UHGV virus genome: UHGV-0011871
From: a virus
Direction: 5' to 3' (one strand)
DNA: 61,028 bases
Within the stretch, counting starts at the first letter, position 1. Every line of letters begins with the position of its first letter. Shown piece by piece: positions 1 through 61,028 of this stretch. A program made the position numbers and the translations under genes. Under the pieces are notes generated by a model, which was not told the origin of the DNA, did not search any database, and worked only from the letters and a program-made list of their open reading frames with translations.

Positions 1-286
1 CGATTTTGAGTCGTGCGCGTCTGCCAATTCCGCCACACTGGCACGATAAACCCTGGCATTACGGGGTTTCTATATTGTCGAGGTTCGTACTACCCCGAAA
101 CAGGTCGTACTATCCTGTCCGAAATGGGGTCGTTTGACTACGACTTCGTACGATTTTGCTCGTGCGAACATCTATTATATTACGTTGTTTGATTCGATAT
201 GTCAACGGTTTACGAAAAAAAAGTTACGCTAGTATAATTTACCAACGTAACCGTTTATTTGACATTCTATTCGATTTATGCGTTTG

Positions 287-17142: not shown

Positions 17143-18759
17143 TTATCTTGCTCGTTTCCTCGTCGTTCGGATTACTGCGTTTCCTTGCTGTGCCGTTGCG
17201 TATCCCATTTGTACCGCATCGGGACCGTCGTCGTGTTTATGCATCGGATACATTTCGAACTGCTCGATCAGCTTCCGATCGATGTTACGATTGAACCGTA
17301 GCTTACCGCTTTGAACGTCCGGCAGCATCGATTCGATACGCAGTGCCTTACGAGTACGTTGTTTTATCTGCTTGATACGTGTATGGCTCGGGTAGCCGTG
17401 CGCTTGTAAGCCCTCCGCCAACTTGTCAGCGATAAACTCCTGTGCGAACTGTGCCTCGATGCCGATACCTTCGTATTGATATTTCATCGTATAATCGATT
17501 ACCTTCTGAATGAGGATGTCGGGATGAACCCGTTCCATGTATATGTCCCACACGTAATACTTGCCAGTATCGAGGTTCCTCACAATCGTAGCGATAACCG
17601 AGTAGTCACCTGCCTGCTTACCCATCGCAATATCGATACCTGCGTAAAAACGTAAGTTAGCGTGTTTCAATTCCTCAGGGTCGAACCATTCGAAGTATTC
17701 CGGCTTGAAGACCTGACGTTCCTCGTCCGTTGGGTTATTTTGGTATTCTTGGTTGAACATCTTCGCACCGTTTTCCTCACGGATAACGATAAACTCGTAG
17801 TATGACCAATAGCCGGGCCACAAGATTTCCGTACCCTTCAACATTTCCTCTTCGTTTTCCTCGTAGAATGCCCGAGCGTCGTCGGCTGCTGTTTTCGAAT
17901 CAGACCGATAAATCTTACGCCATTGTTCCCACAAGTCCTCACGTTCTGAAAACGAGGTTACCGCCGACATTTTACGAGATTCGAAGTCTCGCCGTTCTTC
18001 GATTACATAATGTAGTAGCGAGCCGAAACATAGGATTGTTCCGAGGTAAATACAGATACCTTCCTTCGACATCGCCGGTAGCATTTCCTCACGGAACCAC
18101 GCTTTGTTCTTCTCGATCAATACCGGAGTATTAGTCGACTCTTTCGATTCCAAGTCGTCGAGAATGAACATGTCCGGTCGAGTATCGCCGTGTCGCAAGC
18201 CCCTCGTTTGCGTTCCTAACCCTTTCGCTTCCACTTTCGTATCAGTCGTCGTAATGAACTCGTATTTGTTATCAAGTTCGTTCATTGACGGCTTGACATG
18301 CAAGATTTCACCGTAGTCGGCTCGTAGCTTTTCGTTTAATTTCAGTTGGTACTTGCCCCACGAAATGAAGTCGCCTGCTACGTCGGTAGTTTCCGAGAAC
18401 AATACGATGTAACGCTTTGCCCTGTACACGATTTGATGCACGAGGAATATGTTCGAAATCCATGCGGTCTTTGCGTGTCTACGAGGTACGGCCCAAGCTA
18501 CGTTTTTCTTCTGCCTGCCGGTCATGATGTCGTTGAACAATTCGCAAAGTTCCTTGTGTATCCATGCTGCGTTAGCTACGTTGACACCCTCAGGAATCAA
18601 GTTACTCGGATTGCCTGGGTTACCATCGTCCGAGAAATACGTCATTCCGAAGTAGAGAACGTCGTGCTCCCCACGATGGATGCGTTCTACCTGCTCGATC
18701 TCGTCTAACACGTCCTCTAATCGAATGAGGTCGGCATCTACCGCTTGACCTGACTTCAT
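17143..18759 (-). CDS. terminase large subunit
   Basis: 538 aa, with an N-terminal ATPase region and a C-terminal nuclease-like region containing acidic motifs. Sits between TerS and the portal. Confidence 0.8.
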   Translation of the reverse strand: MKSGQAVDADLIRLEDVLDEIEQVERIHRGEHDVLYFGMTYFSDDGNPGNPSNLIPEGVNVANAAWIHKELCELFNDIMTGRQKKNVAWAVPRRHAKTAWISNIFLVHQIVYRAKRYIVLFSETTDVAGDFISWGKYQLKLNEKLRADYGEILHVKPSMNELDNKYEFITTTDTKVEAKGLGTQTRGLRHGDTRPDMFILDDLESKESTNTPVLIEKNKAWFREEMLPAMSKEGICIYLGTILCFGSLLHYVIEERRDFESRKMSAVTSFSEREDLWEQWRKIYRSDSKTAADDARAFYEENEEEMLKGTEILWPGYWSYYEFIVIREENGAKMFNQEYQNNPTDEERQVFKPEYFEWFDPEELKHANLRFYAGIDIAMGKQAGDYSVIATIVRNLDTGKYYVWDIYMERVHPDILIQKVIDYTMKYQYEGIGIEAQFAQEFIADKLAEGLQAHGYPSHTRIKQIKQRTRKALRIESMLPDVQSGKLRFNRNIDRKLIEQFEMYPMHKHDDGPDAVQMGYATAQQGNAVIRTTRKRAR

Positions 18760-18895: not shown

Positions 18896-19330
18896 TTAGT
18901 TATCGTTTGCTTTGTTAATACGTTCCAGTAGCGCTGCCTTACGCTCTTCGAACGAAAGATCGCCACCGTTATTGATCGTTACCTCAGTATGCGTATCTAG
19001 GTCGCCAATACGCTTCAAGTAAACCTCGATGCCCCTTACCGAGCCACGCTCGATGGAGTCGATTAGTTTCTTGTAAACTAGCGCAAGGTGCGAATCCATG
19101 AACTCACTCGCTAAATAGTTCTTGTAGTTAATGAAGTTCGAATCCTTCGTATCCCAGTTATGCAATGTCTTCCGGCTGACACCGAGTTCTTCTGCGATTG
19201 CTTCCTTAGTCTTGCGTTGCCCTTTCGGCGTAAACTCGTATTCTACTAATGCTATCGCTGCTTCTCGTTGCTTCGGTAAGAACTTAGATTCATCGTATTT
19301 AAAGTTATGTTTGTTGCTCACGTTGTCCAC
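18896..19330 (-). CDS. terminase small subunit (HTH)
   Basis: 144 aa with an HTH ('EAIAEELGVSRKTLHNWDTKD'). It is the first gene of the structural operon, adjacent to a repeat-rich non-coding region. Confidence 0.6.
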   Translation of the reverse strand: MDNVSNKHNFKYDESKFLPKQREAAIALVEYEFTPKGQRKTKEAIAEELGVSRKTLHNWDTKDSNFINYKNYLASEFMDSHLALVYKKLIDSIERGSVRGIEVYLKRIGDLDTHTEVTINNGGDLSFEERKAALLERINKANDN

Positions 19331-19570
19331 CTCCTCGTTTTAATTTCGTACACTGCTTCGCCACCGTGGAACATGCGCCCCTTGACGTAAATTAATACGC
19401 CATGTTATCGTATGTATGTAAAATCCTCACGTAATGCCCATCGATTGCCCACCGTATTGCCCTCTCGTGGTCGACCCCGACCTTTGAAAATTTTGTAGGA
19501 ATTTTTCGGACACCCGGCAGCACGGGCGCAGGCTCGATATACCCCCGGGGGTTCACAAACCCAGTAATAC

Positions 19571-20300
19571 CAACGGTTTGACCCGTTTCCAGGCGTTTCC
19601 AACTAGCCATAAACTACGTTATGTAAACTAGACCGGAATGCCTCGAAGTGGCTTCGGCCTTACAGCCCCAACGGTTGCAGCCGTTTGCCCACCGAATCAT
19701 AATAACTTCCCATTGCGTATATACCCCTACCATACGGGACTATCGTACTATATCCGACACTATGCCCGAGTCAATACGTATACCCCCAATATCTGACGGA
19801 TGCCCGTCTGCTGAACGGTTTGCCCGATGTTTTGGCGTACATGACCGAGTGCCTATAGCGTACTCATACCATGCCCTGTACGTTGCCTATACGTGTAATA
19901 CCGTATACCGTATACCCTATCGATGCCCAAACGTCTTTTTTCGCCTTTAATAGAAGGAACTGGCACGGATACAACGAAGATCGACTATATATAACGTTAC
20001 ACAATCGCTGATATACCAACGGTTTAACACGTTTATATCGAGTGTTATTTATCGCTTATTTACTTGTGTTTTCTAGGTTGTCTATTGATACGAGCGAAGC
20101 GAAGTATAGTCTCTTATATACGTTGTTACCGTTGTATATACGTTAATACGTGTACAACCGTTGTCCCCGTTGACTTCTCAATATATAGTGGGACTACGCC
20201 GGTAAAATATAACCTATGGAACGAAAAAACTTTTTATTTTCGTAAAAAACGTGTAAAAACCCCGTCATATCAACGTTTGCAGCGTTTCATAAAACGTCGA
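19571..20300. repeat. dispersed AACGGTTT-N4-CGTTT repeats in the non-coding region upstream of terS
   Basis: Copies at 19571-19600, 19669-19690, 20017-20037, 20156-20175 and 20269-20300. Related copies at 196-262 and 60993-61020. Confidence 0.5.
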
Positions 20301-20439
20301 TCTTCGATGAAAAACGAAATAAAACGAAATTAATACTTGCAATCGAAAGTACACGGTTATATAATTGCATTAGCCAGTTAGGAACGGCACGGAAACGATG
20401 CCTACCGACACGGCAACGAAAAAGAATTTTCGAAAGTTG

Positions 20440-20469
20440 TTGACACGGTTTAAGAGTCGATGCTATACT
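20440..20469 (+). promoter_or_regulatory. early promoter P1 (TTGACA-N18-TATACT)
   Basis: The -35 is TTGACA at 20440-20445 and the -10 is TATACT at 20464-20469, with an upstream A-tract. Confidence 0.6.
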
Positions 20470-20543
20470 GAAAAGGAATCAGCGACACGGCACGGTAAAC
20501 GTCAGTCGGGTTGTAACGATTCAAAAATAGTTTTAAAAAGTTG

Positions 20544-20573
20544 TTGACACGAAGAATGAGTCGATGCTACAAT
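20544..20573 (+). promoter_or_regulatory. early promoter P2 (TTGACA-N18-TACAAT)
   Basis: -35 at 20544-20549 and -10 at 20568-20573. Shares the spacer motif CGAAGAATGAGTCGATGC. Confidence 0.6.
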
Positions 20574-20662
20574 AAAAGGGAATCAACGGCTGTACGGCTT
20601 GCTAGTACGATTGAGTTCGGAAACCTACCGAAACGGCTGAAAAAAGATTGTCGAAAAAGTAG

Positions 20663-20692
20663 TTGACACGAACAATGAGTCAATGATACAAT
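20663..20692 (+). promoter_or_regulatory. early promoter P3 (TTGACA-N18-TACAAT)
   Basis: -35 at 20663-20668 and -10 at 20687-20692. Confidence 0.6.
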
Positions 20693-20770
20693 GAAAGAGT
20701 CGAAGGCAAGCCGGATGCAGAAGCCGGAAACCCGACACGGATAACGACTTGAAAGTTTTTTAAAAAGTAG

Positions 20771-20800
20771 TTGACACGAAATTAGTGTCATGGTAAACTA
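20771..20800 (+). promoter_or_regulatory. early promoter P4 (TTGACA-N18-TAAACT)
   Basis: -35 at 20771-20776 and -10 at 20795-20800. Confidence 0.5.
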
Positions 20801-21156
20801 AGGTTACAACGTCACACAAGCCAAGCGAAGCAAGGTCACAACGTCACTAAGTTTCGATCTTTGACATAACCCTATATTCGGACTCTATCGAAGTGCTGAA
20901 TCCGACGACGAAAACAAGCGAACCCGCACGTTAACAAACGAGTGGCAAGCGGTAACTAGTCGACTACTACCCGAATGGATAGGCACTACTAAATCGTCCT
21001 TTATCGATAGCATGTTAAGCGAAGCGGAACCTTAAAGGTTGCGGTGACGGGCGGTAAAAAACCCCGAGCGACGGACTAAGGCTGAACAGATTTCGTGAAC
21101 ATGAAGTGCTTACCTCGTCTTTAAGCGAATGGGCTTACGAAAGGAGGGTCGATCTT

Positions 21157-21246
21157 ATGCAAAATAAGCGGATTTTTTACCTTGGGACTCGTGTATCAAT
21201 CGTAGTTAAGTCGAAGAACAAACGAAGAGGAGTGATAAACTGGTAA
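21157..21246 (+). CDS. possible leader peptide (29 aa) in the early leader
   Basis: A strong RBS (AAGGAGGG) sits 9 nt upstream of the ATG. Not in the ORF track (<60 aa). Confidence 0.25.
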   Translation: MQNKRIFYLGTRVSIVVKSKNKRRGVINW

Positions 21247-21916: not shown

Positions 21917-22489
21917 ATGATTAGCGTAGCACTTACAAACTTAGGAAAATACAACGAAGGGACATTGGATTACGTATGGCTAGACTTACCGGCAACTGAC
22001 GAAGATATTGCGGAGGCATTCAAAACTATCGGAGTAGCTGACGGCACCGAATACGAGGAACATTTCTTGAGCGACTGGGACGCACCGGACTTCTTCGAAG
22101 TGGGTCAGTACTCGAGCGTGACAAAACTCAACGAATTAGCTGCAAAACTGGCGGAGATCGACGGCTTGGAGTCTATCTTTGACGGGACATACGAAGCAGG
22201 CGACATCGTAAACCTAGCCCACGAACTGGAAGCACAAGGACATATTCAAGATGCACACGACTATGTCGGGGACATCGTTTCAGACGAAGAACTTGACGAA
22301 ATGGTAAGACATGAGGCGGAATCAGGCGGATGGCAACGTGTGGCACACTTCCTAGACGGAATCAAATACATGTCGGAGGACTACTACTACATTAACGGAT
22401 ACGCAAACGCTGAGAACTTGTCGCAAGTCACGCTCGATGCAATCGTAGACGACATGATGAACGAAATAAAACGCAACTTAGAGGTATAA
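21917..22489 (+). CDS. ardA: ArdA-like anti-restriction protein (DNA mimic)
   Basis: The N-terminal 'LGKYNEGTLDYVWLDLPATDEDIAEAF...EEHFLSDWDAPDFF' matches the ArdA signature (KYN.G.L.G.WLDL ... D.EF ... F.DWEG.P). The protein is highly acidic. Confidence 0.7.
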   Translation: MISVALTNLGKYNEGTLDYVWLDLPATDEDIAEAFKTIGVADGTEYEEHFLSDWDAPDFFEVGQYSSVTKLNELAAKLAEIDGLESIFDGTYEAGDIVNLAHELEAQGHIQDAHDYVGDIVSDEELDEMVRHEAESGGWQRVAHFLDGIKYMSEDYYYINGYANAENLSQVTLDAIVDDMMNEIKRNLEV

Positions 22490-26618: not shown

Positions 26619-26876
26619 GTGACATGCATTATGGGAGTGAAACAATTGATTCAATCTAACCTGAAAGAACTGTTACACGCTAGACGGCTGACGATTCGTG
26701 AGTTCTCACGTATGATCGACTACCGATTCGAGTCTGTACGTCAACTGTATAACAACGAATCCAAGCAGGTTCCGCTAGCCCTAGTCGAACGGGTTTGTTT
26801 GGAACTTCGCATAACTCCGGGCGAACTATTCACGGTGATAGACGCTAACGGAGAGGCAATACAACCGAAGCACTAA
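26619..26876 (+). CDS. XRE-family HTH transcriptional regulator
   Basis: 'LTIREFSRMIDYRFESVRQLYNNESKQVPLALVERVCLELRITPGELF' is a typical HTH_3 fold; RBS (AGGAGGTG). Confidence 0.6.
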   Translation: MTCIMGVKQLIQSNLKELLHARRLTIREFSRMIDYRFESVRQLYNNESKQVPLALVERVCLELRITPGELFTVIDANGEAIQPKH

Positions 26877-27745: not shown

Positions 27746-28171
27746 TCACCAACTATTATGAAACGACCTAGTATTCGGTGTGTAGTCCGTTCCATCGGTC
27801 GCTACGTTGACACCGTGAGTGATTGGCACTTCGTACGTAACTACTCCTGCCTTGTTCTTCTTACGCTCGGAGCCTTGCGTACGTACCTTGTACATTCTCT
27901 CGGACATTATCGGGTACTCCTCGAGCGTCATTTTGTCAGGATGTGAGTCTGATAATTCTTCGTGCAGAATCACGTTAGCCAGTCGCTCAAGCAACGGCCC
28001 GTCAGGTGTTTTTCCCGTCTGCTCTACGTATGCATCCGTCAAATCTTCGACCATTTGCATACGGGCATCCCGAGGAACCTCACCTACGGACTGTTCTAGT
28101 TGCTGTACGTACTCTTCCATTCTCGACTTATAGTTAACACCAAAGCTGTATTGATTAGTTGACATATTCAA
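27746..28171 (-). CDS. hypothetical protein
   Basis: 141-aa ORF; last gene of the leftward replication-module transcripts. Confidence 0.4.
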   Translation of the reverse strand: MNMSTNQYSFGVNYKSRMEEYVQQLEQSVGEVPRDARMQMVEDLTDAYVEQTGKTPDGPLLERLANVILHEELSDSHPDKMTLEEYPIMSERMYKVRTQGSERKKNKAGVVTYEVPITHGVNVATDGTDYTPNTRSFHNSW

Positions 28172-28493
28172 GCGCCTCCCACTCTTCGTATATGTTCGCG
28201 ATCTTCTTTATTGCAGTTGCTACGTGCTTTGTAATCATTGGCTGACTAACTCCCATACGTTGGGCGGTATCCTCTTGACCTAAGTCATAACGGAAATATA
28301 GCGACAAGGCTTCACGCTGCTTATCCGTCAAGTCAGCCAGTTCGATTGCACGGTCAAGCGTCATTAACTCGTCGGCTAGGTGCCACTTACCTGCGTACAT
28401 TTTCTTCTCATTTAAATCCTCGTAACCTTCTAGTAATGCTTTTACATAAATCTCGTGTTTTGTTAATGTCATTGACAACGGACTTCCTCTCAT
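28155..28493 (-). CDS. ArpU/sigma-region-4-like transcriptional regulator
   Basis: 'LTDKQREALSLYFRYDLGQEDTAQRMGVSQPMITKHVATAIKKI' is a sigma-70 region-4 / ArpU-type HTH. Confidence 0.5.
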   Translation of the reverse strand: MRGSPLSMTLTKHEIYVKALLEGYEDLNEKKMYAGKWHLADELMTLDRAIELADLTDKQREALSLYFRYDLGQEDTAQRMGVSQPMITKHVATAIKKIANIYEEWEALEYVN

Positions 28494-57119: not shown

Positions 57120-57155
57120 TTAACATCGCTCCATTTCGTTTAATTTTCGTTTTCC

Positions 57156-57539
57156 CTACCGTTGACTCTCGACATCCAGTAACGCTCGTATTTCCCCGTT
57201 AAAATCACGGATTTCATCGAGTAATTCCTTTAAAGTAGTCGCCTCACTGTCCCGAACCTTCTGCTCTCCGATCGACACGATGGCTTTCGCTACCGTTGAA
57301 TGATACGATACCTCTCGCCAACTTTCCCGAGGTGACGGGTCTGCCCCTTTCTCTTCAAGCTGTTTCCAGTTAGGAGATTTCGTCGGGTCGGTCATATACA
57401 TTCTCTCGACTATTACGTTTCGAGTATCGGACTTGATGCGGAACTCTTCACTTACTTGTATCAACATCATCCATCGCTCCATTTCGTTTAATTTTCGTTT
57501 ATAATCGGCACACTTACCTACGGAAGCCATCCGTCCCAT
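57156..57539 (-). CDS. hypothetical protein
   Basis: 127-aa ORF. Confidence 0.35.
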   Translation of the reverse strand: MGRMASVGKCADYKRKLNEMERWMMLIQVSEEFRIKSDTRNVIVERMYMTDPTKSPNWKQLEEKGADPSPRESWREVSYHSTVAKAIVSIGEQKVRDSEATTLKELLDEIRDFNGEIRALLDVESQR

Positions 57540-57721: not shown

Positions 57722-57742
57722 TTTACCGCCTCCATTTCGTTT

Positions 57743-59171: not shown

Positions 59172-59546
59172 TCATGCAGTACCCTCTTCATACTGTGAAG
59201 TACCTACTTCATCGATTGCAGTACCCTCTACGAACCATTTCGGCGGTTCATACAGTTCGTACTCATTCGATAGGTTACGAGTGCCTTTCTTCCTGACCGT
59301 AACTCCGATCAGTTCTAACTCCTGTAATCGCTTTAGTGCTGCCCGTACTGAGTTTTCCGAACATCGACACTTACCGGCGATTGTCTTTACACTCGGATGC
59401 GACTTAGTTGTAGTGTTATCTGCGTACATACAAAGCGTTGCATAAACGAGTTTTTCGACTGGCTTCTCGATGTATACTTCGTCGTCCATGACGGCTCTCG
59501 TCATTCTAACGAATCGCATGTCGTCGAAGTTTATTCGCTTTTTCAC
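59172..59546 (-). CDS. winged-helix replisome-organiser-like protein (N-terminal domain)
   Basis: 'LVYATLCMYADNTTTKSHPSVKTIAGKCRCSENSVRAALKRLQELELI' resembles phage replication-initiation N-terminal domains. GTG start 6 nt after an AGGAGG. Confidence 0.45.
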   Translation of the reverse strand: MKKRINFDDMRFVRMTRAVMDDEVYIEKPVEKLVYATLCMYADNTTTKSHPSVKTIAGKCRCSENSVRAALKRLQELELIGVTVRKKGTRNLSNEYELYEPPKWFVEGTAIDEVGTSQYEEGTA

Positions 59547-59564
59547 GAGCAACCTCCTTTCGTT

Positions 59565-59940: not shown

Positions 59941-60997
59941 AAAACAATTTTTCAATCGGACTGAAACGCTTATGTGCGGTTGTAACATCGTCGCTGAATA
60001 AGTTAACGTAATTACGAACCATTTCCAATGAAGTATGCCCGAGCACTTTTTGAAGCGAGAATACATCGGCTCCATTTTGTACGGACATCTTGGCGAAGGT
60101 ATGCCGGAATGTATGCGGACTGCATCGGACTCCTTTTATGTCTGCCATACGTCCATACTTCGCTATTCGGTTTTGTAATTGCCGAATGGTTATCGGTGTA
60201 TTATCGACGGTTACGAACAATGCCTCGTTTGGCGTGTCGCCCCGTACGGTTATGTATTTCTTTAGTTGTCTTTTCACGGTGGACTGAATCGGCACCAATC
60301 GCTCTTTGTAGCCTTTACCGTTGATACGAATTTGTCCGTCTTCCCATCGAATATCCTTTAATGTAACTTCGACTAACTCTCGAGCACGTATGCCGGTTTC
60401 CAATAGCAATAGGATTATCGTATAATCACGGAATCCCGTAAATGTGCCCTGGTCGGGCTGCCGGAGTATGTCGTGTATCTGCTCTCGGGTGAACGTCTCT
60501 ACGACTTCCTTTTTCGCTTTGACTAGCTTCAATTCTGCCAACGGGTTTTCTCCGATCATTCCGTCTTTCTCAAGGAAATTAAAGAATGCACGGATGGCCC
60601 GAAGCCTCGTATTGATTGTCGTCTCCTTCAAGCCTAAATCATCGAGCATGTAAAGTATGACGTTTTCCCGTAGGACATCGATAGTCATTTGATTAGGTCG
60701 GGTACTCACCTTCTGAGCCTCGAGAATCCCTCGTAATGACTTCAATTCGTTCCGGTAATACTTTAGGGTATGGTCGCTCAAATTACGTGCCCTAGCGTCC
60801 TTTAGAAAGCGTGTGAGACACACGTCAAAGTCTTCGCATTGGTCGTCAATATCACGTACTTTCGCTGCCCTCGAACTCACTTTTAACGTATTACTACGCC
60901 TTGCCATCGTCGAACCAACTCCCTCTATTCGTGAAATCAGTTCGCACGATTTAATCGTACGACAAAAAACAGCCAAAACTCGAAGTTTGCCCGTCAT
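59939..60997 (-). CDS. int: tyrosine recombinase / integrase
   Basis: C-terminal catalytic region '...RHTFAKMSVQNGADVFSLQKVLGHTSLEMVRNYVNL' carries the R..H..R..Y signature. SAM-like N-terminal domain. Confidence 0.8.
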   Translation of the reverse strand: MTGKLRVLAVFCRTIKSCELISRIEGVGSTMARRSNTLKVSSRAAKVRDIDDQCEDFDVCLTRFLKDARARNLSDHTLKYYRNELKSLRGILEAQKVSTRPNQMTIDVLRENVILYMLDDLGLKETTINTRLRAIRAFFNFLEKDGMIGENPLAELKLVKAKKEVVETFTREQIHDILRQPDQGTFTGFRDYTIILLLLETGIRARELVEVTLKDIRWEDGQIRINGKGYKERLVPIQSTVKRQLKKYITVRGDTPNEALFVTVDNTPITIRQLQNRIAKYGRMADIKGVRCSPHTFRHTFAKMSVQNGADVFSLQKVLGHTSLEMVRNYVNLFSDDVTTAHKRFSPIEKLF

Positions 60998-61028
60998 GTC
61001 AACGTTTATGCGTTTTACCAGTGTCCTG

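Follow-up and report, generated by a model that had tools for sequence, protein, structure and literature searches.

Sites of the integration host factor (IHF) occur in mobile elements of Escherichia coli, namely in attP arms, in cosB and in the origins of pSC101 and R6K. In phage T7, short repeats (SRL/SRR) adjoin the terminal repeats, and the early promoters A1-A3 stand in tandem together with the anti-restriction gene 0.3 (ocr). In phage lambda the genome end opposite terS is packaged last and injected first. The canonical IHF site contains WATCAA, a TTR four bp away and an A-tract in the 5′ half (PMC1874591). In the present work, the 61,028-nucleotide stretch of the UHGV virus genome UHGV-0011871 (the window) was analysed for short dispersed repeats lying upstream of the small terminase gene, terS. 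The repeats of this 61-kb provirus, which is of the phBC6A51/Magadivirus kind, are local copies of a ~22-bp cis element that is common to many mobile elements of Bacilli. With a probability of about 0.4, the repeats are predicted to be sites for a host architectural factor and not a terminase-specific packaging signal.

Form of the element and its distribution in Bacilli

The consensus of the element was found to be AAA-(C/G)(C)-CCGTCATATCAACG(G)TTT, and the window contained two near-perfect and three or four degenerate copies of it. In the contexts described below, the element is present as the exact 17-mer CCGTCATATCAACGTTT or as near-identical core variants. The exact 17-mer was found in 73 IMG/VR stretches, compared with 14 for a composition-matched shuffled control. 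These 73 stretches represent 30 distinct contexts, 22 of which lie outside open frames of at least 100 aa. The positions -5 to -3 were occupied by A in 17-19 of the 22 non-coding contexts, so that the conservation reaches past the 17-mer that was searched for. BLAST matched the element to 411 plasmid records, 340 of them from Staphylococcus, and to 80 phage records; nearly all of the records are from Bacilli.

The presumptive origins of four loci (L116, L117, L137 and L172) were found to contain the element amid element-specific inverted iterons beside D5-like primase-helicase genes, and a streptococcal satellite origin contained two copies between AGGTTAGG iterons. The staphylococcal plasmid pCCSH121-2 (L195; 1,241 bp), which encodes RepL only, contained the element between GTAGTA iterons upstream of repL. 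Tiny plasmids of Staphylococcus and Macrococcus (L195, L179 and L180) carry the 22-bp element in their replication control regions. In the pC194-type plasmids (pLNU3/pSELNU1 and a qacH plasmid), it lies between the nick site of the double-strand origin, dso (CTTGTCTTGATAC), and the rep promoter. Its reading as the single-strand origin ssoA was rejected, since RSB and CS-6 occupy other positions on pSELNU1 and differ from it in sequence. At attachment sites, the distance of the element was 37 nt to the att repeat annotated in Staphylococcus phage phiSP15-1 and 17-20 nt to the 3′ end of a tRNA in two loci (L114 and L157). In the att-arm contexts it lies 20-45 nt from the attP cores, and the integrases of those attP arms are 22% and 29% identical to that of the window. 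About 30 proviruses contained it 20 nt after a dif-like site, upstream of a terminase (Terminase_3/PF10668) unrelated to that of the window. Large myoviruses of Bacillus and Enterococcus contained it in intergenic DNA; the copy of BPS10C (CAGTCATATCAACGGTTTAAAACACGT) is intermediate between the sub-types A and B of the window.

Like IHF sites, the element was thus found at att sites, in origins and in packaging regions of mobile elements that belong to one host group but are otherwise unrelated. No terminase, initiator, integrase or regulator is common to them, some encode one protein only, and the machinery of the host is all that they have in common; for this reason the reader of the sequence would be supplied by the host, or the sequence would work by its own mechanics. 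Its orientation with respect to neighbouring genes and att cores was variable, which fits an architectural site better than a promoter.

Some known classes of sites were compared with the element and rejected. For a promoter, neither strand gave a sigma-A -35/-10 pair with conserved spacing across the contexts. Among the known operators of Bacilli, the DnaA box gave 3/9 mismatches and the CcpA cre, parS, LexA, CodY, TnrA and CtsR boxes did not fit. Literature searches with the strings CATATCAACG, CGTTGATATG and ATATCAACGTT returned primers and unrelated papers only, and the core may be described in journals outside those searched.

In the window, the copies lie 238-960 nt upstream of terS, past a GC-rich palindrome, and are spread over ~750 bp. 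They form a heterogeneous family of two sub-types that are separated by one base (CAACGGTTT vs CAACGTTT). Sub-type A, ATACCAACGGTTT(G/A)AC, comprises the copies A1 and A3, the weaker copy A2 and the inverted copy of the phased array, and sub-type B, AAAAACCCCGTCATATCAACGTTT, comprises B1 and the copy B2 upstream of int (Table 1). With a 20-bp position weight matrix (PWM) made from relatives, B1 scored 30.9 bits and B2 scored 29.4 bits, compared with 13.5 bits for the next best site of the window and a maximum of 19 bits in 50 shuffles. The B1 core CCCGTCATATCAACGTTTGC (20261-20280) ends 57 nt upstream of the -35 of the first early promoter, P1. The right-end copy reported at 60993-61020 in a preliminary description of the window is likewise strong, as 60990-61009 agrees with 20261-20280 at 17 of 18 leading positions.

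That description had reported a cluster of repeats with a second unit (-N4-CGTTT) upstream of terS and related copies at both ends of the window. The cluster is real, but the orientation of one copy, the coordinates of a duplication and the left-end copies needed to be amended. Each of the five copies listed for 19571-20300 was confirmed. In 19571-19600, three (C/G)G(G)TTT units were found 9-10 bp apart; 19669-19690, 20017-20037 and 20269-20300 are on the + strand, and 20156-20175 is better described as inverted, with its motif on the - strand (GTCAACGGGGACAACGGTTGTAC). One more copy, the sixth, was absent from the earlier list and was found at 19812-19835 within another conserved block. At the left end, 196-216 (ATATGTCAACGGTTTACG) is present but is a weak copy that is not conserved in relatives, and 241-262 has a weak PWM score (11 bits) and may be due to chance. 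The weak copy at 193-216 overlaps the opposite-strand -35 (TTGACA) of the promoter of a phage-borne tRNA-Leu 5′ half.

The sequence CAACGGTT occurs 9 times in the window, and 4 of these occurrences fall in 19331-20340, compared with 0.15 expected under a uniform distribution. All four window copies of AACSGTT-N5-CGTT were also found within this region, and AACGGTT ranks among the top enriched 7-mers in an unbiased k-mer count. The second unit, -N4-CGTTT, is enriched, but only modestly (4 vs 0.7). The literal 17-nt AACGGTTTNNNNCGTTT with at most 2 mismatches gave a marginal excess (6 vs 2.7 expected), which was equalled in 4 of 100 shuffles. The duplication given as CCGTATAC is a tandem 7-mer (ACCGTAT x2) lying at 19900-19913, slightly off the position 19893-19910, and is part of another enriched family, TATACC(C), of which 6 copies were counted. 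The GC-skewed stretch that had been reported was also found, with a skew of -0.17 in 19001-20000, and 20001-21000 is AT-rich (40% GC).

Table 1. Features of the window (coordinates are those of the whole 61,028-nucleotide stretch)
Feature	Position	Strand	Sequence and remarks
terS	18896-19330	-	144 aa; PF13022, HTH_Tnp_1_2; phBC6A51 / PDB 2AO9 family
Phage-specific, strand-specific short repeats	19428-19930	+	(A/T)TGCCC x9 and TATACC(C) x6; C-rich stretch
E1 AT-rich box	19478-19508		CGACCTTTGAAAATTTTGTAGGAATTTTTCG; also written TTTGAAAATTTTGTAGGAATTTTT; relatives TTTAAAATTTTGTAGGAAATTT
GC-rich block	19509-19555		ends in palindrome CCCCCGGGGG (19542-19551)
Copy A1	19565-19600	+	TAATACCAACGGTTTGACCCGTTTCCAGGCGTTTCC; core CCAACGGTTT and two (C/G)CGTTTCC units 10 bp apart
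dif-like Xer site	19602-19629	+	ACTAGCCATAA / ACTACG / TTATGTAAACT
Copy A2	19664-19692	+	AGCCCCAACGGTTGCAGCCGTTTGCCCAC; weaker core CCCAACGGTT; related stretch in L008 (CTTACAGCCGTTTGCAGCCGG)
Copy-like sequence in conserved block E4	19812-19835	+	TGAACGGTTTGCCCGATGTTTTGG; relatives GTCCGTCGTGAACG-N3-TGCCCGA
Copy A3	20008-20038	+	CTGATATACCAACGGTTTAACACGTTTATAT; 80% identity over 35 nt with A1 and the left flank of A1
Phased array	20113-20176		six (A/C)CGT(T/G) units 8-10 bp apart, including inverted copy GTCAACGGGGACAACGGTTGTAC at 20153-20175 (-)
Copy B1	20252-20300	+	TGTAAAAACCCCGTCATATCAACGTTTGCAGCGTTTCATAAAACGTCGA; matches the pan-Bacilli element in full (A-tract, 8 nt, TATCAACGTTT)
Five tandem sigma-A-type promoters, P1-P5	20337-20800	+	facing the early block with ardA; equivalents in L007 and L009
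Copy B2	60986-61020	+	TTTGCCCGTCATGTCAACGTTTATGCGTTTTACCA; attP arm upstream of int
Weak copy	193-216	+	TTCGATATGTCAACGGTTTACG; other attP arm; PWM 8.5 bits

Region upstream of terS, dif-like site and attP

The 1.8 kb to the right of terS was found to be without convincing open reading frames, and the promoters P1-P5 form its end. No match to this non-coding region was obtained by blastn against 50,697 phage records, and blastn-short against related loci gave two short patches only, so that the relatives were compared by motifs. The terS-upstream DNA of L007, L009, L008, L011, L004/5, L006, phBC6A51-like loci and Mgbh1 was included. In this comparison with related phages, which the preliminary description had proposed, relatives with 48-83% TerS identity were found to retain copies in otherwise unalignable non-coding DNA. 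The two closest, L007 (TerS 83% identical) and L009 (72%), contained their own ATCAACG(G)TTT copies in the same orientation and with the same spread, from just past the palindrome to ~40-140 nt before the first promoter. L007 contained CCCGTTATATCAACGTTTAT at the place equivalent to B1 and an inverted pair similar to the array at 20113-20176, and L009 contained a homologue of the A1 triple (TATCAACGGTTTGAGCCGTTTTCAAGAACGTTTG). Across 40 non-redundant loci, the strict core AT[CT]AACGG?TT occurred at 0.36/kb upstream of terS vs 0.03/kb in the adjacent coding DNA, and the core was invariant between TerS proteins that are only 36% identical. The phage phBC6A51, which integrates by a serine recombinase, contained exactly one ATATCAACGTTT in its 61 kb, located in the terS-upstream module, and none near the recombinase.

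The layout shared by the relatives consists of an AT-rich box, a GC-rich block, ATAA-N6-TTATGTAAACT and GTCCGTCGTGAACG-N3-TGCCCGA, to which the closest relatives add tandem promoters before ardA. The E1 box adjoins terS in the window and in all of the relatives (L004-L009, L011, L033/phBC6A51 and Mgbh1). The position of the palindrome is occupied in relatives by CCCCGGGGGG or CCCCGCCCC. In the Bacillus cereus relatives with all three elements, the distances were found to be near-constant, with +89 nt (+119 in one locus) from the palindrome to the dif-like site and about +106 nt from there to the core. The E1/palindrome module is a plausible candidate for the terminase cleavage site (cos/pac) or for a terminal-repeat boundary.

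In Mgbh1 (L001, 6300-6560 and 6600-6780), the terS-upstream region contained other repeats at the same place, namely seven AAACGGA (TCCGTTT) units and four TTGACGT(T/A). The GenBank record of Mgbh1 begins and ends within a similar GC-rich block. A 28-nt patch upstream of terS in the window (19355-19382) is 93% identical to L007; in L007 (9350-9420) this patch runs into a tRNA-like sequence with acceptor and T-arm-like parts (GGTTCAATCC), for which ARAGORN made no tRNA call. Neither the window nor the relatives gave a tRNA in ARAGORN, and Rfam, at the gathering threshold and at E<=10, gave nothing relevant.

The copy A1 adjoins the XerC-side arm of the dif-like site. The dif site of B. subtilis is ACTTCCTAGAATATATATTATGTAAACT (PMC3025954). 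The site at 19602-19629 has the dif format, with an 11-bp XerC arm ending in ATAA, a 6-bp centre and an 11-bp XerD arm, and agrees with B. subtilis dif at 11/11 positions of the XerD arm and 7/11 positions of the XerC arm. Sites resembling ATAA-N6-TTATGTAAACT were found in L008, L009, L011, L006, L033, Mgbh1 and ~30 other proviruses, and L007 contained GTAA instead of ATAA. A second, unrelated group of Bacillus phages was also found to have a dif-like site, CCGATAA / GGTTAC / TTATGTAAACA. One member of this group (L174, 8930-9954) encodes a 180-aa tyrosine recombinase (PF00589) 2.7 kb past the pair of dif-like site and 17-mer, and this recombinase may be the user of the site. A small neighbouring protein of L174 is ArpU/sigma-like by eye and gave no Pfam match. 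The conserved dif-like site upstream of terS may serve in multimer resolution or in an alternative integration route.

At the other end of the window, the relatives of the integrase belong to phages that insert in the anticodon loop of tRNA-Leu(CAA). In these relatives, int is adjoined by the host tRNA 5′ half, which is followed by GACTCAAAAT and, 25-45 nt on, by the conserved CGCCCGTCATAT(C/T)A(A/G)CGTTTAT and then a terminator-like hairpin; the B2-type element accordingly lies 25-45 nt from the tRNA-Leu crossover. The window begins inside a phage-borne tRNA-Leu 5′ half (45 to 1, - strand), which has its own promoter, TTGACA-17-TAATAT (211-178, - strand). Most phages supply the 3′ end of the tRNA, unlike this one with its replacement 5′ half. 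In free-phage contigs (L062, L063, L072 and L073) the promoter, the arm repeats, the 5′ half, the crossover, the B-type element and int were found to be contiguous. The int start is most likely 60907, which has GAGGGAG 9 nt upstream, and not 60997. TCGTAC(G/T)A repeats occupy both att arms (window 1-215 and 60908-61028) and are likely to be the arm-type sites of the integrase.

The terS product belongs to the family of PDB 2AO9, a phBC6A51 protein that other authors treat as the small terminase of phBC6A51 (PMC5135824, PMC11331095). TerL (17143-18759, - strand) is 60% identical to that of phBC6A51 and 54% identical to that of Bacillus phage Mgbh1. The promoters P1-P5 are spaced by 104-119 nt, with A/T tracts conserved upstream of them; a leader of ~350 nt (20800-21160), in which a patch (20992-21030) is 90% identical to L007, comes next, and then the early block with ArdA. 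This + strand block consists of small acidic genes, including that of the anti-restriction protein ArdA (21917-22489), and the rest of the - strand contains a full replication module, with a XerC/D-like integrase at the right end. In the replication module, a perfect 29-nt direct repeat (57124-57152 and 57472-57500; CATCGCTCCATTTCGTTTAATTTTCGTTT) was found, with a third copy of 13 nt at 57730, and each copy lies at the start of a small - strand gene.

The short repeats of the C-rich stretch were also enriched in the unbiased k-mer count, with 9 observed vs 0.83 expected for TGCCC and 4 vs <0.01 for TATACCC. Three of the TGCCC copies are 11-12 bp apart at 19435-19462, between terS and E1. Relatives contained C-rich stretches at the equivalent place, but with other enriched short k-mers. 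By analogy with the satellite origins, TGCCC and TATACC(C) are more likely than the core element to be candidate sites for phage proteins (TerS or an initiator).

A proposed host architectural factor and other explanations of the repeats

As sites of a host architectural factor, the copies would each be a docking site for a host-encoded DNA-bending protein, which would be a counterpart of IHF, possibly HU (HBsu) placed by sequence. In this prophage they lie among phage-specific iterons over the 1 kb of control region from terS to the early promoters, which also holds the cos/pac-like GC-rich palindrome and the dif-like site, with one more copy in the attP arm, and the bending would fold the DNA so that terminase, the Xer/Int recombinases, perhaps an initiator, and RNA polymerase at the early promoters could assemble. 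The binding of a protein, its encoding by the host and the bending of the DNA are all three predictions from the sequence. The combination of TATCAA with an A-tract 8 nt upstream was found in B1 and in 17-19 of 22 independent contexts, and the TTR is present in sub-type A (TTG, TTA) and in many other elements (TTTTA).

Several points weigh against sites of this type. The TTR is absent in B1 and B2, and these two best copies read TGC and TAT in place of the strict IHF TTR; the element also has a fixed N4, CG(G)T, at a place where IHF sites are unconstrained. IHF is not known from Bacilli, HU is considered sequence-neutral, and a six-frame motif search found no HU/IHF-like protein encoded in the window. 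Neighbouring copies are separated by 98-204 bp and show no obvious phasing, and the element resembles the phiX174/pC194 nick motif (AACTTGATAT vs AACGTTGATAT). The sub-type A copies with their extra CGTTT units could also be a separate phage-specific iteron, and these extra units may be specific to the family because seven TCCGTTT units are present in the equivalent region of Mgbh1.

A recognition site of TerS, as which the preliminary description had read the repeats (a pac/cos region), is considered unlikely. In that case the helix-turn-helix (HTH) ring of the phBC6A51 family would bind the phased CGTTT/CAACGG units and mark pac/cosB for TerL. TerS is an HTH protein with a relative that is multimeric in PDB 2AO9 (PMC5135824), the repeats adjoin terS, and across the family the core shows a 14-fold enrichment upstream of this gene. 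The sole phBC6A51 copy is in the terS-upstream module, and the A1 triple, phased at 9-10 bp beside the conserved GC-rich palindrome, is kept in L009. The core was, however, also found where no terminase exists (RepL and pC194-type plasmids and satellite origins), upstream of an unrelated terminase and in attP arms, and the copies extend over 750 bp and are separated from terS by the putative cleavage palindrome. Repeats of pac/cosB type would be specific to their cognate TerS and would co-vary with it, and neither was observed here. The three TGCCC copies between terS and E1, with their 11-12 bp phasing, are a better TerS candidate. The packaging part of the earlier proposal keeps some ground in the terS and terL genes on the left and in the E1/palindrome module as plausible cos/pac, but the repeats are unlikely to be specific for TerS.

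The copies could instead be iterons or the core of a phage origin for the HTH_36 initiator (59172-59552), with a second site near int, and this too is improbable. The region is AT-rich (40% GC in 20001-21000), repeat-dense and located beside strong promoters, B2 is 1.4 kb from the initiator gene, and the satellites and the RepL plasmid carry the core in presumptive origins between iterons flanking initiator genes. In those origins, however, the element is the invariant centre amid element-specific iterons, and since the core stays the same between iterons that differ, it is not the specificity determinant of the initiator. Iterons would be expected to differ with the initiator, and here the flanking iterons vary and the core is constant. 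The initiators are also unrelated (D5-like helicases, RepL, HUH Rep and HTH_36), no motif cluster was found in or near the replication genes of the window, and no initiator gene lies beside the region. The identical core beside unrelated initiators makes the iterons of a replication protein, to which the preliminary description had turned for the copies near the integrase, an unlikely reading. With the origin contexts found elsewhere, an origin function for the region as a whole is plausible. Integrase arm-type sites, offered for the same copies, are likewise unlikely: TCGTAC(G/T)A probably fills that role, the integrases accompanied by the core are only 22-29% identical, and the repeats are not confined to the two attP arms, most copies lying 19-20 kb from attP. 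One strong copy in the attP arm next to int stands, but the two locations, at terS and at int, point to a shared accessory (host) factor more than to either machine by itself.

Two further explanations have little weight. Operators of a dual regulator, acting on early promoters and as attP directionality factor in the manner of P2 Cox or 186 Apl, would fit B1, 57 nt from the P1 -35, and B2 in the attP arm, as well as the arrangement of the copies as direct repeats, and small HTH candidates are encoded at 26619-26876 (HTH_26) and 28155-28493 (sigma region 4). They are very unlikely, as the element also occurs in unrelated phages and in plasmids whose sole product is Rep or RepL, the nearest promoter is 300-750 bp away for most window copies, and no repressor gene was identified. 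A nick site for an HUH-type or other nuclease (TTG/ATAT as in the phiX174 and pC194 origins), or a recombination junction spreading between mobile elements, has only a slight chance. The reverse complement of the core, AAACGTTGATATGAC, resembles the CTTGATA nick motif, and the element lies beside the true dso of pC194-type plasmids and at mosaic junctions of small plasmids, but these plasmids have their own canonical nick site ~32-35 nt away. No HUH endonuclease was detected for the D5-like helicase elements, the RepL elements or this phage, and the A-tract at fixed distance would be left unexplained.

If the repeats are sites of a host architectural factor, Bacilli would gain a counterpart of IHF-dependent recombination, replication and packaging assembly. 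This would explain one short sequence common to unrelated phages, satellites and tiny resistance plasmids, and in Gram-positive mobile DNA the element could serve as a simple marker of origins, att sites and control regions. In this phage family, the true sites of TerS and of the initiator would then have to be sought among the TGCCC and TATACCC repeats and in the E1/palindrome module. A wider and more doubtful proposal is that Bacilli have an unrecognised sequence-specific architectural system, in which a 22-bp IHF-like element, bound by HU or an unfamiliar host factor, would be used by phages, satellites and small plasmids for origin, att, Xer and packaging complexes. Within such a system, this prophage would stand out as unusually rich, since 5-7 copies adjoin its dif-like site.

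Comparison with known systems

The E. coli IHF sites (lambda attP H1/H2/H′, cosB I1, pSC101 and R6K) are likewise asymmetric and have a comparable geometry of A-tract, ~8 nt, WATCAA, N4 and T(T)R. Like the element, they are found in attP arms, in the terS-proximal region and between iterons, in variable orientation, and are reused by unrelated elements. The element differs from them in its hosts, which are Bacilli, in its far more conserved core (CCGTCATATCAACGTTT) with N4 set to CG(G)T, and in the departure of B1 and B2 from the strict TTR, and its binding by a protein is predicted. Lambda cosB R sites and the SPP1 pacL-pacR boxes are likewise short repeats near terS, partly phased by the helical turn and near a putative cleavage site, but the core was found in terminase-less elements and upstream of an unrelated terminase, and in the window it is scattered through 750 bp beyond the palindrome as seen from terS. 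Iteron origins are known from Staphylococcus aureus pathogenicity islands and phage-inducible chromosomal islands (SaPI/PICI), from P4 (ori/crr) and from RepL/pSN2 plasmids. The core was found in presumptive origins of this kind, amid iterons and beside D5-like primase-helicase or RepL genes, and the window region likewise mixes it with phage-specific short repeats, but there is no initiator gene next to the region in the window.

With respect to the type of packaging, the terminase gave a sub-threshold match to the T7-type model and shares 38% identity with its counterpart in Paenibacillus phage Tripp. The terminal repeats of Tripp are 378 bp long (PMC4706335) and showed no more than loose similarity. 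For Mgbh1, headful packaging was predicted in the paper on that phage from the tree only. The E1/palindrome module is the best candidate for a cleavage or boundary site in the window. The likeness to T7 consists in dispersed short repeats that have a putative genome end on one side and, on the other, strong early promoters in tandem for an anti-restriction gene, with the differences that the sequence of the repeats is unrelated and that the genome end is putative here. If the genome end is at this module, the tandem promoters and ardA would lie at the end opposite terS, which by analogy with lambda would be packaged last and injected first, in an arrangement resembling the left end of T7.

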